From: Nitrososphaerales archaeon
Lineage (GTDB): Archaea; Thermoproteota; Nitrososphaeria; Nitrososphaerales; Gagatemarchaeaceae
DNA: 13,454 nt
Assembly: GCA_014874415.1 (NCBI GenBank)
Contig: JACWAI010000076.1
Span: 1 to 13,454, forward strand
Direction of reading: 5' to 3'
Shown: piece by piece, positions 3,612 through 8,629 of the stretch
How positions within the stretch are numbered: the stretch's first letter is position 1
How the letters are laid out: each line of letters starts with the position of its first letter
Position numbers and translations under genes: made by a program
Notes under the pieces: model-generated
Database searches by the model: none
What the model saw: only the letters and a program-made list of their open reading frames with translations
What the model was told of the DNA's origin: nothing

Positions 3612-4325
3612 CTATTGGAGGTGCGTGTAGATTTCAGAGAGCGACTTGATCCGAGGGCAATCCGATTCAGGGTGAGAGCCGTCCCTGTCGATGAGTATGC
3701 CCAAGATGCCCGCGTTTCTGGCGCCGACGACGTCCGCCTCGTAGAGGTCCCCGACATGCACCGCTTCGTCCGCGTTGACCCCGGCACCCTTCAGCGCTAT
3801 CCTGAAGATCTCTGGGTGCGGTTTGGTGTAACCTACGACCCCAGAAATCACCACGGGGTCGAGGTACTTCAAGAGCCCGAGGGTCTCGACCGCCCGTCCG
3901 GTGTCGGCAGGGGCGTTAGAGATCAGCCCAAGCGAATAACCATCTCCAGCCAGACGGGCCAGTGTCGGCTCGGCGTCTGGGTAGAGGGCGAGGGGGATTT
4001 CGGATTCGAGCTCGGGCCAACGCTTTCGGACAAGCCTCGAGACCCTCAACGCCTCGGATTCGCTCTGATCGGGGAAGAGCGAAGAGAACACCTTCTGGTC
4101 AAGATGGCGATATGCATCGCTCGTCTGCTCCGGTGTCAGGACCTGCTGCCCATAGTAGGAGAGCCACCACGGCTCCGCGGCGAGATAGGCGGAGTGGATT
4201 CTTTCGAGAGGAACCTCTCGCCCTTCTTCCTGTAGGACCCTGCGGAATATCCTGTCGCGCCTCATGATTAGGAGGGTGCCGCCCAAGTCGAAGAAGACCG
4301 CTTTCTTGTGCAACGAAACAGCCAT
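3612..4325 (-). CDS. HAD-superfamily hydrolase, subfamily IA-like
   Basis: Four HAD motifs are present: motif I FFDLGGTL, motif II LISNAP, motif III GYTKPHPEIF, and motif IV HVGDLYEADVVGARNAG. It has an ATG start and lies 39 nt downstream of the DUF1634 gene on the same strand. Confidence 0.85.
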   Translation of the reverse strand: MAVSLHKKAVFFDLGGTLLIMRRDRIFRRVLQEEGREVPLERIHSAYLAAEPWWLSYYGQQVLTPEQTSDAYRHLDQKVFSSLFPDQSESEALRVSRLVRKRWPELESEIPLALYPDAEPTLARLAGDGYSLGLISNAPADTGRAVETLGLLKYLDPVVISGVVGYTKPHPEIFRIALKGAGVNADEAVHVGDLYEADVVGARNAGILGILIDRDGSHPESDCPRIKSLSEIYTHLQ

Positions 4326-4364: not shown

Positions 4365-4775
4365 TCACGCGTGAAACCCCGGGATGAATGGGGTGACGAG
4401 CATGCTGAACAGCAAAAGAGTCAGCACCACCCCGGTAATCACAACGTAGAGCCTGTCCCTCTCGGCACCGAACAGGAGCACGGAGATCGTGACACGTGCG
4501 ACCGGGGTGGCGATAAGGAGTATGACCCCAAGCTCAATCCACGAGAACGGAGAATAAGAAACAAGGCCGTTGAAAAGCCCTCCAAGGCTCACGTCGAGGC
4601 CATCGTGGGGGACAGTATTCGGATTGTAATTGAGGAAGCCCGACGTATCGGATGACCCCTGTGAAATCGCAAGCCCGATCGTCCCAAGGATCACAACAGT
4701 TGCTGACAGGATGACTCCGTATCTGAGGACCTTGCCGATAATGACGTTCATCTCTTCAGGGTCTTTCAGGTTCAT
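4365..4775 (-). CDS. DUF1634-family small membrane protein (usual partner of TauE/DUF81 permeases)
   Basis: 136 aa beginning MNLKDPEEMNVIIGKVLRYGVILSATVVILG, with 3-4 hydrophobic segments. Its ATG (4775-4773) overlaps the TauE stop as ATGA. The upstream 113 codons of tracked ORF 4365..5114 are an Arg/Gly-rich shadow of the TauE gene in another frame. Confidence 0.75.
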   Translation of the reverse strand: MNLKDPEEMNVIIGKVLRYGVILSATVVILGTIGLAISQGSSDTSGFLNYNPNTVPHDGLDVSLGGLFNGLVSYSPFSWIELGVILLIATPVARVTISVLLFGAERDRLYVVITGVVLTLLLFSMLVTPFIPGFHA

Positions 4776-5614
4776 ACGGAGACCCCCAGGGAGCTCAGTA
4801 TCATCTCGACTGCAGCGACTGCCAGGACGACAGCGAATGCCTTCCTTATGGTGACATTGCGGGAACGGATGAGGAGGCGAGCCCCGATGGCCGCTCCTAT
4901 CAGTATGCCCAGGGCGACTGGCGCCACTATGAGAGGGTCTACGTCCCCCCTGGCAAAGTAGATCCCGGCGCTGGCGGCGGCCGTAACCCCGATCATGAAG
5001 TTGGAAGTCGTGGTAGAGACCTTCATAGGCAGCTTCATGGCCAGGTCCATCGAAAGGACCTTGAATGCGCCTCCCCCGATGCCGAGCAGCCCTGAGAGGA
5101 TCCCGGCGACCCATGTTCCCGCCAGTCCTTCCACAGGCTTCTCCGAGTTGTACTTCATCAGCGACCCGTCTTTCTCGACGTAGGTCCCGGTCAGGCCTAG
5201 CCGCTTTGAAAGCCCCTTAAGCTCAGGGTTCTTCGGTATCTCCTCGCCTATTTTCATCAGCGTTGGCACAAGGGTGGCGAGAAGGATTAAGCCGAAGATC
5301 AGTTCGAGGGACGCGGAGCCCGTGTATGCCGCCAGAGCAGCACCGATGATGGCGCCAGAAGTGCTGCCGAGCTCGAGGAACATGCCCACGCGGAGGTTCG
5401 TCACCTTATCTTTGACGTAGGTGGAGGCCGCCCCGCTGGACGTGCCGATTATCGCCACGATGCTCGCCCCGATGGCGAAGTGTATGTCGACCCCGAGAAG
5501 TATAGTGAGGACTGGGATGATGACGACCCCGCCTCCCAGGCCAACCAGCGAGCCGAAGACCCCAGCAAATATAGAAATGAGGAGCAAGAGCGTGATGAAC
5601 TCGACTACGAACAA
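4772..5614 (-). CDS. TauE/SafE (DUF81) family anion/sulfite-type exporter permease
   Basis: 280 aa and polytopic. The glycine-rich signature is duplicated (LVGLGGGVVIIP near the N-terminus, LLGIGGGAFKV in the second half). It starts at TTG, with no in-frame ATG upstream of the first TM segment. A TATA-like element lies 24 nt upstream. Confidence 0.85.
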   Translation of the reverse strand: MFVVEFITLLLLISIFAGVFGSLVGLGGGVVIIPVLTILLGVDIHFAIGASIVAIIGTSSGAASTYVKDKVTNLRVGMFLELGSTSGAIIGAALAAYTGSASLELIFGLILLATLVPTLMKIGEEIPKNPELKGLSKRLGLTGTYVEKDGSLMKYNSEKPVEGLAGTWVAGILSGLLGIGGGAFKVLSMDLAMKLPMKVSTTTSNFMIGVTAAASAGIYFARGDVDPLIVAPVALGILIGAAIGARLLIRSRNVTIRKAFAVVLAVAAVEMILSSLGVSV

Positions 5615-5679: not shown

Positions 5680-6870
5680 TCACACGGAGCCAAGGGCTGC
5701 AACTATCCTCTCATGGCTCTGCTGTATTCCTTCCACGCCTGTGTTCAGGATCATGCAGGGAACCTTCCAGTCCTCGAACATCGACCTGAAGAAAGTGGCC
5801 TGACGGGCGTTGTCAGGCTCGAGGAGGTATGGATTGTACCACGGCTCGTAGGATATCGACCCCCACTGTTCCTTTGGTCCCGCTCCGGGCAACACCATGT
5901 ACTCCCCCCTCTGCAGGATGCTGATCGACTGGTCCGGGGTGAGCTTTGCTTCCGCGGGGCTGTGGTCGTCCCTGCGGAGGAGCACCACCAGGTTGATGGG
6001 CACCTCGTCTACGACCTTTTCCGACCCGAGGATGTCGTCTCTCCTGACAAGCGCCCTGGAGTTCCCGAAGGAGTAATAGCACTGGTGCCTCCCTTCGTTG
6101 AATACGCATTTCTTGCCTGTAAGGGAACAGCCAACATCACCCTCGGTGTACTCGCAGTCTTCTTTCCGAGTGGTGACGTTCTCGTTCATTGACCTGTCGA
6201 ACACCTCGCCGAGCCAGCCCTGCTCCTTCTGCGATTCGGACCTCATGTAGAGGGACCTCTCCGGCTGTCTGGCCACCAGCGGAGAGCTCTTTGCCGTGGC
6301 ACCGGATGGGAAACGAACGTATGCCCAGTCATCCCCACATATCTTCCCATCGGGGTCCATGAAAATCTTGAACGACTGCGTGGTCTTGCCCGTGCCCGTG
6401 GGGGCGACGATTACCACCCCTTTGCCCTTGTAAAGAGCGGTGGCGCCGTGAATCGAAAGGGTGTTCGCCTCCTTTTCAAGGACGGCCGCTGCCATGCCAA
6501 GGGCCCAAGACTTGCACTGGCCATAATACTCCGTGTTGAGGAAGAGCGCTTCCCGGAGTTCGGGACAGTAATAGGCCGAGGGCTCGATGCCTTCGACTCC
6601 TATGGCGGAATAGATTCTCGCCTTGGGAGGAGCCAAAGCCTCCGCCTTCCACCAGTTGTGCGACCAGAAACCAGCCTGATGCGCGCTGTTGGTCGAAAGC
6701 TCGACGACGACCCCATTCAGGTCCGCCTTCATCGAGCCGAATCCTGATCCATCCAAGGCGGACTTCGCACGCGCAAGCAGGGGGAGGAACTCTGCCTTGG
6801 GGGTGTTCTTTTTCCCCTTCACGCGCGCCCTGGATTGTGTGACATAGTTGTTGAAGGGAGGAAGCGCCAA
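5680..6870 (-). CDS. Truncated ATP-PEP-carboxykinase-fold / HprK-like P-loop protein, function unknown
   Basis: 396 aa. The Walker A motif APTGTGKTT is verified at nt 6379-6405. Several blocks are colinear with E. coli PckA as I remember it:
- NTEYYGQCKS ~ GTWYGGEMKK
- SIHGATA ~ SMHCSAN
- DPDGKICGDDWAYV ~ DPKRRLIGDDEHGW
- MNENV ~ LLENV
- GNSRA ~ ENTRV
- LVVLLRRDDHSPAEAKLTPDQS ~ [23 protein letters not shown]
- MILNTGV ~ YLVNTGW
It starts at TTG, 27 nt downstream of a TTTTAA box. An in-frame ATG at codon 47 is an alternative start. Confidence 0.7.
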   Translation of the reverse strand: MALPPFNNYVTQSRARVKGKKNTPKAEFLPLLARAKSALDGSGFGSMKADLNGVVVELSTNSAHQAGFWSHNWWKAEALAPPKARIYSAIGVEGIEPSAYYCPELREALFLNTEYYGQCKSWALGMAAAVLEKEANTLSIHGATALYKGKGVVIVAPTGTGKTTQSFKIFMDPDGKICGDDWAYVRFPSGATAKSSPLVARQPERSLYMRSESQKEQGWLGEVFDRSMNENVTTRKEDCEYTEGDVGCSLTGKKCVFNEGRHQCYYSFGNSRALVRRDDILGSEKVVDEVPINLVVLLRRDDHSPAEAKLTPDQSISILQRGEYMVLPGAGPKEQWGSISYEPWYNPYLLEPDNARQATFFRSMFEDWKVPCMILNTGVEGIQQSHERIVAALGSV

Positions 6871-6897: not shown

Positions 6898-6903
6898 TTA
6901 AAA
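6898..6903 (-). promoter_or_regulatory. TATA-like box upstream of the PEPCK-fold gene
   Basis: The minus strand reads GGTTTTAAGGGTGCGGGCTT. The box ends 27 nt upstream of TTG 6870, a near-leaderless geometry. Confidence 0.45.
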
Positions 6904-6955: not shown

Positions 6956-8629
6956 CTACCGCCTGATCATCGGCGCTTGCAAGGGAGCTCTCTCAAGGCC
7001 GTGACGCGATGCCCTCTCGAGGTCCAGGCCTCCCCTGAGGCAGCGGTTCTTTACCACGCGGAGCATGGCCCACGCACCGAGCGCCATCATTCCCCCGGTG
7101 ACGTACTTGGTCAAGGGGTTCTGCTCGGCTGAGGCGCTGGTGGCGTCCCTCCTGGCGATCTTGGCGAGATGCCTATAGGATGCGTAGTACACCGCCAACT
7201 GAGACCTGTTGAGCTTGACCGAGGAGAAGTCCCTGCTCTTGAGGAGCCCCAGGGGGACGTTCTGCATGGGGGTCACGGTGAACTCGAAGGGCCGGCCGTC
7301 GTCAAGGGCGGATGCGCTCATGCGGTTGATCAGGGCGACTGTCTCCCAGTTGTCCTCGGGCGTCTCCCCATCCTGCCCCACCTGCACGGTGAAAGCGGGG
7401 CGCCAATAGTATTTGTTCAGGACGTAGGTCCCTCGCCATACTATTTCCCCCCAGCTCCCGTCCGGCCCGACATGCAGCGGCAGGGTCTTGTTGGGCATGT
7501 GCACCGAAGCGAGCCGGTCGCTCCCGGTCTCGATTCCGATCTGAAGACCGATCCAGTTGTCCGGCCCCGCCCTCATGATTCTTGACAGCTTGCGGATGAA
7601 CTCTGGGTACGCGGCCGGTATCGAGATTCTTCCGTGGGTGGGATTGGTCTGGTCGACGCCGGAGGTCGCTATCACTGCCGAGAACAAGGCCGAGATGGCC
7701 TCCTGGTTAGGCTCGAAGTTCCTCCCGTGCTCGTAGGCGAATATCTCGTCGCTGTGCAGCCAGGCGTTGCCCATCCCTGCCCTTATGTTGACCTCGAGCT
7801 CCCGTCTCACCTTCTCCGGAGGATAGTATCGGAGTGGCCTCAAGGTGACTTCGCAGAAGTCGCACCCTATGCCGCACCCGCGCATGACCTCCACCATGCC
7901 CTTAACGGAAGGGTTGACTATGTCCGGGATGTCCTCGAGCTTGGGGAACTGTTTCGAGAACTGATACCGGCTGATGAACTTGGAGCTCGCCTTCCATTCT
8001 TTGTGGAACGACCCGTCGAAGGTCTGGAAGCCTCTGAAGAACTCGGTATTCTCCCCTCCGTCCTCGACCACGTAGCGGAAGAGGTCAGAGACTATGTCGT
8101 CGGCTTCGCCCTGGTAGGCGTAGTCGATCCTGTTCTTCTCGAGCACATCGGGGTGGACAGTCAGCTCCCAGACGCCAGGACCTCCTACGATGAGCTTCGC
8201 CTTCTTCCCCGCCCTCGCCCTGTTGACGCGGGCCAGGAGGGACTCGAACTCTCTCTGCACATAGGCGGGGGCGGTTGTGTCGAAGAATACGGCATAGGAC
8301 ATGGTGAGCGGCCCCAGGCCGAGGGGGTCCATGGTCGACACCCCGATAAGCTCTGTGTCGTCATCAACGAACTCTGCTATGTGGTCCTCGTGGGCCACCA
8401 CGACTTCGCCCCTTTCGTGACGCTTGAGGACTGATGCCTCCAGCTTCCTGATGGCGTAGGGGGCGAAGACCGCCTTCCCGTCTTCCGACGGCGGGGGAGG
8501 TCCCTTCAGGAAGCTGTAGATAGAGCCAGGGAGGGCGCTTGTCGGAGCGCTGGCGAGGAAGTCGAGGAGGGGGACGCTCCTGTAGTTGCGGGCCAGGGTG
8601 GTGTCTGAAACGAGCACGAATCTCGCCAT
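6956..8629 (-). CDS. Radical SAM enzyme with an N-terminal B12-binding-like (Rossmann) domain
   Basis: 557 aa with an ATG start. The canonical CX3CX2C motif is in VMRGCGIGCDFCEV (C252/C256/C259, verified at nt 7853-7876). The N-terminal about 170 aa show the pattern of cobalamin-binding-like domains of class B radical SAM proteins (ELIGVSTMDP..., KLIVGGPGVWEL). Only one further Cys occurs in the whole protein. Confidence 0.85.
   Translation of the reverse strand: MARFVLVSDTTLARNYRSVPLLDFLASAPTSALPGSIYSFLKGPPPPSEDGKAVFAPYAIRKLEASVLKRHERGEVVVAHEDHIAEFVDDDTELIGVSTMDPLGLGPLTMSYAVFFDTTAPAYVQREFESLLARVNRARAGKKAKLIVGGPGVWELTVHPDVLEKNRIDYAYQGEADDIVSDLFRYVVEDGGENTEFFRGFQTFDGSFHKEWKASSKFISRYQFSKQFPKLEDIPDIVNPSVKGMVEVMRGCGIGCDFCEVTLRPLRYYPPEKVRRELEVNIRAGMGNAWLHSDEIFAYEHGRNFEPNQEAISALFSAVIATSGVDQTNPTHGRISIPAAYPEFIRKLSRIMRAGPDNWIGLQIGIETGSDRLASVHMPNKTLPLHVGPDGSWGEIVWRGTYVLNKYYWRPAFTVQVGQDGETPEDNWETVALINRMSASALDDGRPFEFTVTPMQNVPLGLLKSRDFSSVKLNRSQLAVYYASYRHLAKIARRDATSASAEQNPLTKYVTGGMMALGAWAMLRVVKNRCLRGGLDLERASRHGLERAPLQAPMIRR

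Follow-up and report, generated by a model that had tools for sequence, protein, structure and literature searches.

Few enzymes of central carbon metabolism are as well studied as phosphoenolpyruvate (PEP) carboxykinase (PEPCK). Only a small number of functional branches of its superfamily are known: the ATP-, GTP- and PPi-dependent PEPCKs and HprK/P. Here we describe a protein of 396 amino acids (aa), hereafter mini-PEPCK, encoded by a Nitrososphaerales archaeon of the Gagatemarchaeaceae (contig JACWAI010000076.1 of assembly GCA_014874415.1; the whole stretch analysed, 13,454 nucleotides (nt) long, is called the window). The homology of mini-PEPCK to ATP-PEPCK is well beyond chance and extends over almost the entire protein. 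To judge from its sequence, it represents an uncharacterised minimal branch of the PEPCK superfamily that is new as such; no solved structure or curated family covering it was found, and the Gagatemarchaeaceae genome paper makes no mention of PEPCK or gluconeogenesis. We favour, giving it about an even chance, the reading that mini-PEPCK is an active compact phosphotransferase of this superfamily, of which the reaction or the specificity is altered compared with canonical PEPCK.

The homology emerges most clearly from profile and structure comparisons. In a single-sequence scan, Pfam PEPCK_ATP (PF01293) matched residues 104-181 only, with 25.5 bits for a gathering score of 26.5, and phmmer aligned mini-PEPCK with the T. 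cruzi PEPCK at an E-value of 0.024. Among the NCBIfam models, the PEPCK subfamily NF006821 scored 55.6 bits (E 3.5e-15; cut-off 369), NF006820 15.7 bits (cut-off 636) and TIGR00224 12.9 bits (cut-off 590). When a profile built from 17 diverse family members was compared by hhalign with a small PEPCK alignment, a match of 98.8% probability (E 5e-17) was obtained over 356 columns, which places query residues 4-396 on residues 63-466 of E. coli PckA. This diversity was needed to recover the PEPCK signal, since a profile of close homologues only gave nothing but noise against the PDB sequences and reached 44% probability against the single PckA sequence. An AlphaFold (AF2) model computed from 45 homologues (pLDDT 79.6, pTM 0.82) has the two-domain PEPCK fold, with low confidence at residues 1-6, 243-252 and 324-340 and a pLDDT of 44-60 within a cysteine-containing insert. 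The top 35 PDB matches of this model in Foldseek are all ATP-PEPCKs (E 3.7e-19 to 8e-16, TMq 0.64-0.74; for the best structures, E 1e-17 to 1e-19 and TMq 0.70-0.74), GTP-PEPCKs rank after them, and all of the top 50 are PEPCKs, with no HprK/P. Thus, the motif matches to PEPCK on which a first-pass annotation of this DNA had built are not spurious, and the residues concerned do align. Its limits on PckA were nevertheless too narrow: the alignable part begins not around residue 110 but before 98, probably near 58-63, and instead of ending near the NTG block it runs about 20 residues further, to about PckA 466.

The residue map from hhalign shows how much of the PckA active site is kept (Table 1). 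The retained positions are Y207, G209, K212, H232, S250 (as Thr), K254, T255, D268, D269, K288 (as Arg), E311, N331, R333 and T455 (as Ser). The P-loop pair K254/T255 and the pair D268/D269 align with K162, T163, D180 and D181, which are invariant, and the oxaloacetate/PEP-binding set Y207, S250, N331 and R333 is matched by Y115, T158, N270 and R272. All the motifs listed by the first-pass annotation were found, namely HGATA (H141), GTGKTT (159-164), GDD (179-181), GNSR (269-272), GQCKS (117-121) and NTG (376-378), as was the loss that it reported of the C-terminal adenine-lid region: neither the R449 segment nor PckA 467-540 is present. The other parts of PckA without a counterpart are residues 1 to about 57 and an insertion at 76-97. 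The adenine-contacting R449 segment falls in a deletion of six residues that removes both R449 and I450, so that in the adenine pocket (R449, I450, I452, T455) only the last two positions can be aligned, and the protein ends before the C-terminal subdomain. Of the Mn2+ site formed by K213, H232 and D269, the His and the Asp are kept (H141 and D181) and K213, part of the Mn/CO2 site in PckA, is replaced by S121. Ser stands at this position in mini-PEPCK, in every one of the 62 homologues from genomes and in almost every cluster with intact catalysis; the K120-S121 pair that stands in place of Lys-Lys is a hallmark of the family, shared even by longer relatives of 450-630 aa without a Pfam match. 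Moreover, the segment that corresponds to the PckA lid region is a conserved, family-specific motif, lying partly in the stretch of low AF2 confidence at 324-340.

The N-terminal substrate arm had been described as missing in the first-pass annotation. The conservation pattern indicates that it is clearly present and constrained, and shortened rather than missing: N8, T11, R16 and K21 never vary among close homologues and hardly do so among 62 species-level homologues across phyla. In the hhalign alignment, PckA 98-152 is matched by the query helix 25-42 together with the TNSAHQAGFWSHNW segment, and 24 further residues precede them. The spacing R16-x4-K21 is that of R65-x4-K70 in PckA, and short strands flank the arm in the AF2 model, as they do in PckA. 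From this we infer that R16 may be equivalent to R65 of the PckA substrate arm.

These PckA-like features also bear on the possibility that mini-PEPCK is a P-loop kinase or regulator of the HprK/P or ScmC kind, which would phosphorylate a protein or a peptide. This possibility is suggested by a weak precomputed Pfam match to PF27840 'ScmC', by very weak NCBIfam matches to ScmC and HprK-related kinase A in the query and to HprK in its relatives, and by the radical-SAM gene lying upstream in the window and in three related loci. However, these matches are far below their cut-offs (TIGR04249, 11.4 bits for 125; TIGR04352, 10.7 for 200; TIGR00679, 18.9 for 240), TIGR00679 (HprK) being seen in the relatives only, at 16-19 bits, and the top 50 Foldseek matches contain PEPCKs exclusively. 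Mini-PEPCK also keeps the PEPCK N-terminal domain and the equivalents of Y207, K212, N331 and R333, which HprK/P lacks, and the radical-SAM neighbour is conserved in few genomes only. No SynChlorMet cassette, the context of ScmC, was seen in 80 loci. We consider a protein or peptide kinase of this type quite improbable.

The family is small: when 1.84 billion representative proteins were searched exhaustively with a profile, only 215 clusters matched at E<=1e-3. About 650 homologues of the mini-PEPCK open reading frame (ORF) were found, and a protein of identical sequence has been deposited; the best 120 homologues are 72-85% identical, 393-417 aa long, annotated as hypothetical and derived from metagenome-assembled genomes (MAGs) of Nitrososphaerota/Thaumarchaeota. 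A scan of 185,579 species genomes, seeded with a 7-sequence subset of the family alignment, returned 96 carriers, all of them MAGs. These belong to the Nitrososphaerota, Bathyarchaeia, Thermoplasmatota, Hydrothermarchaeota and Aenigmarchaeota among archaea, and to the Thermodesulfobacteriota/'Deltaproteobacteria', Nitrospiria, Dehalococcoidia, Brocadiia and Methylomirabilota among bacteria; the family was found only in uncultured archaea and bacteria of soil and groundwater. In the 62 full-length species-representative genomic homologues used for conservation analysis, which come from the groups just listed other than Methylomirabilota and cover at least 8 phyla, the mapped catalytic positions are essentially invariant despite an overall identity of 31-57% between phyla, which argues for retained catalysis and not for decay. 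The intact ORF and its close homologues in many Nitrososphaerota MAGs likewise agree with the earlier view that the gene is no decayed PEPCK. One might still imagine a pseudoenzyme or scaffold that stems from PEPCK and is catalytically dead, given that related clusters with degenerate P-loops exist and that the canonical Mn ligand is lost, but the P-loop Lys and Thr, the two Asp, the His and the two Arg do not vary between phyla although overall identity is only 35-57%, and this explanation appears extremely improbable.

From the fold, the retained residues and their conservation we infer an activity, a class of substrate and a bound metal for mini-PEPCK. In the mechanism that we propose, K162 and T163 of the P-loop would hold the nucleotide and Mg, H141 together with D181 would hold a second metal, and R210 and R272 would contact phosphate and carboxylate. 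With Y115, K120, T158 and N270 kept as well, and the R16/K21 arm closing the substrate pocket, the gamma-phosphate of an NTP would most probably pass to, or come from, a small metal-bound 2-oxo- or 2-hydroxy-carboxylate resembling oxaloacetate or PEP. The first-pass annotation had proposed an active phosphotransferase with a substrate different from that of PEPCK. The conserved oxaloacetate/PEP-contacting residues, together with the fusions of paralogues to an aspartate aminotransferase-like (AspAT-like) domain and to PEPCK described below, argue for an oxaloacetate/PEP-like substrate. The same fusions, which point to oxaloacetate, would suit a bona fide minimal PEP carboxykinase (oxaloacetate + NTP <-> PEP + CO2 + NDP), that is, a gluconeogenic or anaplerotic enzyme of the host lineages with trimmed termini, in which Ser and a water molecule replace the Lys213 ligand. 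Nearly all the PckA residues that contact oxaloacetate, phosphate and metal are retained and invariant in mini-PEPCK, a lid-like motif is kept, the gene usually lies outside pathway operons, as is typical for pckA, and a few family members are labelled ATP-dependent PEPCK by the JGI pipelines. The invariant change of K213 to Ser argues against a canonical PEPCK, however, as the Lys-Lys pair is found even in NF006821, the closest canonical subfamily, and Ser occurs in almost all intact clusters of the family. The scores against NF006821 and TIGR00224 are also far below their cut-offs, and many family-specific invariant residues surround the pocket. Indeed, the loss of K213 across the family, of the R449 segment and of the C-terminal subdomain makes canonical PEPCK kinetics or specificity unlikely, and the many invariant family-specific aromatic residues, considered with the change of K213 and the loss of the adenine-contacting segment, favour an altered reaction or specificity over a minimal PEPCK, which we regard as rather unlikely although a serious candidate. 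A bolder proposal, which we judge to be less probable still, is that of a new enzyme class on a minimal PEPCK scaffold. This could be a metal-cluster-bearing kinase for a 2-oxo- or 2-hydroxy-carboxylate other than oxaloacetate (of the lactate, glycolate or sulfolactate type, giving a PEP-like 2-phospho-acid) or an enzyme of a non-decarboxylating reaction at the aspartate/oxaloacetate node, with the four cysteines as a redox or metal sensor. If this were true, it would fill an unassigned step of central or cofactor metabolism in abundant uncultured soil archaea (Nitrososphaerota group I.1c, Bathyarchaeia, Thermoplasmatota).

Several observations weigh against an active phosphotransferase acting on an oxaloacetate/PEP-like compound. 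Mini-PEPCK lacks the Mn-ligand Lys, and its nucleotide-base pocket is truncated, so that even the use of a nucleotide is deduced. Invariant residues of the family without a PEPCK counterpart are numerous (H64, W69, N72, W73, Y116, Q118, W122, W182, R300 and N346-P347-Y348), and the pocket may therefore bind something quite different. Mini-PEPCK stays below every curated PEPCK cut-off, widely so except for Pfam, where it is 1 bit short. R16 is not paired with R65 by hhalign, the edge of this alignment being unreliable, and the AF2 model cannot be relied on at 324-340 or within the Cys insert. The fusion evidence comes from catalytically degenerate paralogues and not from orthologues, and the gene neighbourhoods are lineage-specific (TauE/DUF1634/HAD, agmatinase or guaBA-LOG-SppA) with no consistent pathway. 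Finally, the literature on PF27840, on PEPCK-like archaeal proteins, on the PEPCK/HprK superfamily and on ScmC yielded no relevant report and no characterised member.

Relative to PckA, mini-PEPCK has gained a four-Cys insert, for which the residue numbering and the nucleotide span given in the first-pass annotation are exact. It occupies the site of the PckA hairpin 314-330, directly before the substrate Arg R272; its second half (CVFNEGRHQC) overlays the PckA hairpin IDFDDGSKT and its first half is additional. The four Cys show no variation among the close homologues (45 of 45). Across phyla the last Cys pair is fixed in the pattern C-[VM]-F-[DN]-x-G-x-x-x-C-[YF]-[YW], and the spacing of the first two varies (C-x4-C, C-x8-C or C-x12/13-C, followed by x4, x6, x10 or x11). 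At least four Cys are present in about 40 of the 62 species-level homologues, and elsewhere the insert is lost as a whole unit. In about 20 of the 62 its place is taken by a loop of nine residues free of Cys (xDxDFxAFG), and every catalytic residue is kept; the hosts are Thermodesulfobacteriota and Nitrospiria, one member each of the Hydrothermarchaeota and the Dehalococcoidia, and a few other archaea. Of the clusters formed at 50% identity and 300 aa or longer, 42 have intact catalytic residues without the insert and 5 with it, and 14 keep the insert with a degenerate P-loop, His or Asp. The insert is thus lost where catalysis is intact and kept where the P-loop is dead, which makes it an accessory module separable from catalysis in both directions. 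By this distribution it is a real, selected and lineage-variable module that does not take part in the catalytic mechanism; the insertion first reported from the sequence is conserved where it occurs, without being integral to catalysis. In our reading it would enlarge the beta-hairpin before R272 and hold a structural metal. The variable spacing, the lack of a CxxCxxC motif of the Fe-S type in the insert and the occurrence in both aerobic-type and anaerobic-type hosts favour such a structural metal, most likely Zn rather than Fe-S; no Pfam zinc-finger or Fe-S family matched mini-PEPCK. Alternatively, the insert might bind an Fe-S cluster or be redox-active and so turn the enzyme on and off, in which case mini-PEPCK would be a metabolic kinase under redox or oxygen control. 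That the four invariant Cys immediately precede R272, that the insert persists in paralogues without catalysis and so has a role of its own, and that its spacings are atypical of classical CxxC zinc ribbons would be consistent with such a switch. Yet a distance between the first two Cys that varies so widely is more often a mark of structural Zn sites, entire lineages do without the insert, and its hosts, as far as taxon labels indicate, include both the aerobic-type Nitrososphaerota group I.1c and the anaerobic-type Bathyarchaeia. Considering also the motif data, a redox switch seems doubtful, and we retain a probable structural Zn site.

Table 1. Positions of mini-PEPCK, its motifs, its neighbours and related genes (window coordinates, or locus coordinates where a locus is named; residue equivalents refer to E. 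coli PckA)
Feature	Position	Strand	Basis or remark
Mini-PEPCK ORF, complete, 396 aa, TTG start	5680..6870	minus	translation, HMM, fold and profile comparison
TTTTAA, possible archaeal TATA box	6898..6903	minus	~30 nt 5' of TTG; sequence only
Short N-terminal arm, residues 8-21 (N8, T11, R16, K21)	6808..6849	minus	conservation; candidate PckA R65/K70 arm
YYGQCKS, residues 115-121 = Y207-K213, kinase-1a block	6508..6528	minus	alignment and conservation
Y115 = Y207; G117 = G209; K120 = K212; S121 in place of Mn-ligand K213	within YYGQCKS		hhalign
SIHG, residues 139-142; H141 = H232, metal ligand	6445..6456	minus	alignment
P-loop APTGTGKTT, residues 156-164; T158 = S250, K162 = K254, T163 = T255	6379..6405	minus	alignment and conservation
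GDDW, residues 179-182; D180/D181 = D268/D269	6325..6336	minus	alignment and conservation
ERSLYMR, residues 204-210; E204 = E282, Y208 = Y286, R210 = K288 (phosphate contact)	6241..6261	minus	alignment and conservation
ENV, residues 230-232 = E311-N312-V313; N-terminal anchor of insert hairpin	6175..6183	minus	alignment
C239-x8-C248-x6-C255-x8-C264, probable metal-binding knuckle (predicted)	6079..6156	minus	conservation; low AF2 confidence
NSR, residues 270-272 = N331-T332-R333; substrate/gamma-phosphate Arg	6055..6063	minus	alignment and conservation
PGAGPKE...EPWYNPYLL, residues 328-350, ~ PckA 392-416 lid region (AGTE...FSACFGAAFL)	5821..5889	minus	alignment
NTG, residues 376-378 = N440-T441-G442; 6-residue deletion follows	5737..5745	minus	alignment
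I382 = I452; S385 = T455; sole adenine-pocket residues that align			hhalign map
TauE/SafE permease	4772-5614	minus	downstream of mini-PEPCK
DUF1634 gene	about 4365-4775	minus	downstream of TauE/SafE
HAD phosphatase	3612-4325	minus	downstream of DUF1634
Radical-SAM protein, 557 aa, B12-binding-like N-terminal part	6956-8629	minus	Radical_SAM 29.8 bits; weak TIGR04013
Stand-alone LigD 3'-phosphoesterase domain protein, 218 aa	8703-9359	minus	
Class-II aminoacyl-tRNA synthetase (aaRS) catalytic core without anticodon-binding domain, 302 aa	9495-10403	plus	
AspAT-like fusions	L006 8001-10346; L088 1517-3874		
P0166, 899 aa	L090 8001-10700		
P0226, 597 aa	L094 7001-8794		
Relative of 450-630 aa	L092 3118-4812		
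Agmatinase, loci L021, L024, L026, L028, L029, L031	about 7105-7998		translationally coupled to mini-PEPCK
Agmatinase, archaeal locus L056	6531-7406		reversed order

Paralogues and distant relatives extend this picture. Three proteins of about 780 aa (P0139, P0141 and P0164) join an N-terminal class I/II aminotransferase domain to a degenerate, Cys4-bearing mini-PEPCK domain. The models that fit their aminotransferase part best are those of aspartate transaminase, with 425 and 408 bits, short of the equivalog cut-offs (for NF004769, 425 bits for a cut-off of 617). A 633-aa PEPCK_ATP gene is located two genes from the fusion in locus L006. In P0166, a degenerate, Cys-less mini-PEPCK-like domain is followed by an NF006821 PEPCK (416 bits for a cut-off of 369). 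These fusions suggest that the ancestry of the family is tied to the aspartate/oxaloacetate/PEP node, through paralogues and not through the orthologue group of mini-PEPCK itself. A Band_7/flotillin gene always adjoins the AspAT-like fusions, and P0166 resembles two PEPCK-fold units in tandem, one 'dead' and one 'live'. Six named relatives (P0144, P0154, P0162, P0167, P0176 and P0197) and similar proteins, of 450-630 aa and without a Pfam or NCBIfam match, share the Y-K-S, H, GKS/T, DD, ER, ENV and NxR motifs and differ in their C-terminal half; they appear to form a second uncharacterised branch of the superfamily. Another relative, P0181 (754 aa), contains an intein at residues 216-393 (Pfam Intein_splicing, E 1.5e-16), which follows the P-loop at a distance of some 20 residues. 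The distant relative P0226 is catalytically intact and flanked by a riboflavin operon (ribBA-ribH-nusB-ribD-ribE) and by cobalamin lower-ligand genes (cobC-cobU-cobT-cobQ), a context that could hint at a cofactor-pathway kinase in its branch.

The genes around mini-PEPCK differ from one lineage to another. In the window and in 13 further loci, all from Nitrososphaerota, mini-PEPCK is followed on the same strand by TauE/SafE, DUF1634 and HAD genes with gaps of 33-72 nt. A 249-aa ORF at 4365-5114 overlaps TauE, and the DUF1634 start is probably near 4775 (the homologues have 128-136 aa). In 6 soil Bathyarchaeia loci, an agmatinase gene (TIGR01230, 223 bits for a cut-off of 174) overlaps the mini-PEPCK start by 4 nt, and one other archaeal locus has an adjoining agmatinase in the reversed order. 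The order guaB-guaA-LOG-mini-PEPCK-SppA is found in about 9 Thermodesulfobacteriota loci, and an Omnitrophota homologue is placed between ndk and yicC/gmk. That no partner is shared across lineages would fit an enzyme of central metabolism acting on its own. Upstream of the TTG start, the TTTTAA element, if it is a TATA box, might give the mini-PEPCK gene a near-leaderless transcript of its own. The radical-SAM gene lies directly upstream, with orthologues at the same position in loci L009, L014 and L016; it was not retained as a functional partner, being found in only 4 of about 17 Nitrososphaerota loci. The 302-aa aaRS-like protein is probably an AsnA-type asparagine synthetase, as its best matches are AsnRS and archaeal asparagine synthetase A. 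An asparagine synthetase A gene is also located 12 nt upstream of the mini-PEPCK homologue in a Bathyarchaeia locus (L085); this link was set aside, the gene being 2.6 kb away in the window and not conserved elsewhere. A sulfonate pathway, suggested by TauE and a neighbouring TPP enzyme, was likewise left as a lead only, since the TPP enzyme is generic and acetolactate synthase-like, below all cut-offs including that of Xsc, and the TauE synteny is limited to Nitrososphaerota. No PADLOC model for defence systems gave a match.

If the favoured reading is right, mini-PEPCK would define a conserved and slowly evolving minimal PEPCK of about 400 aa, indicating that both termini and the adenine-contacting segment are dispensable parts of this fold. 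Its change of K213 to Ser would be a natural metal-site variant of a kind otherwise represented only by an engineered E. coli mutant (PDB 2PY7). The lineage-variable Cys4 module, with its predicted metal, would allow accessory metal sites of P-loop enzymes to be studied in a clean experiment provided by nature. The carriers are abundant in soils and groundwater, and their oxaloacetate/PEP node is annotated by homology only; assigning an activity would put right entries labelled 'hypothetical' or, automatically, 'PEPCK', and a new reaction could come to light.

Among known systems, ATP-PEPCK (PckA; PF01293, TIGR00224; structures 1AQ2, 2PXZ, 1XKV and 1II2) is the nearest, and the family from which mini-PEPCK descends. 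It shares with mini-PEPCK the two-domain fold, the P-loop GxGKT, the His of HxxA, GDD, the Arg of N-x-R, a lid-like segment and the NTG block, and mini-PEPCK has equivalents of Y207, K212, S250, K288, E311 and N331. In contrast to mini-PEPCK, it has about 530 aa and Lys213 where mini-PEPCK has Ser; the Cys insert, the family-specific invariant Trp, Tyr and Asn residues and the failure to reach curated cut-offs also set mini-PEPCK apart. The NF006821 subfamily (PRK09344.1-3) is the best-scoring curated model for mini-PEPCK and its relatives (33-66 bits), and its members are fused or adjacent to degenerate members of the family (the C-terminal part of P0166; the 633-aa protein in L006), but they are full length, with a Lys-Lys kinase-1a block and no Cys insert. 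HprK/P, the HprK-related kinases and ScmC (TIGR00679, TIGR04352, TIGR04249, PF27840) have a P-loop domain of the PEPCK-like superfamily and a similar size; unlike mini-PEPCK, which matches them with trace scores only, they do not have the PEPCK N-terminal domain and the oxaloacetate-binding residues. For the insert, some adenylate kinases, including those of Gram-positive bacteria, carry a Cys4-Zn lid. Although its fold position and sequence are unrelated, and the metal of the mini-PEPCK knuckle is predicted, the analogy may be instructive: in both cases an accessory four-Cys knuckle would sit in a mobile hairpin of a P-loop phosphotransferase, and in some lineages a short Cys-free loop takes its place while catalysis is kept.

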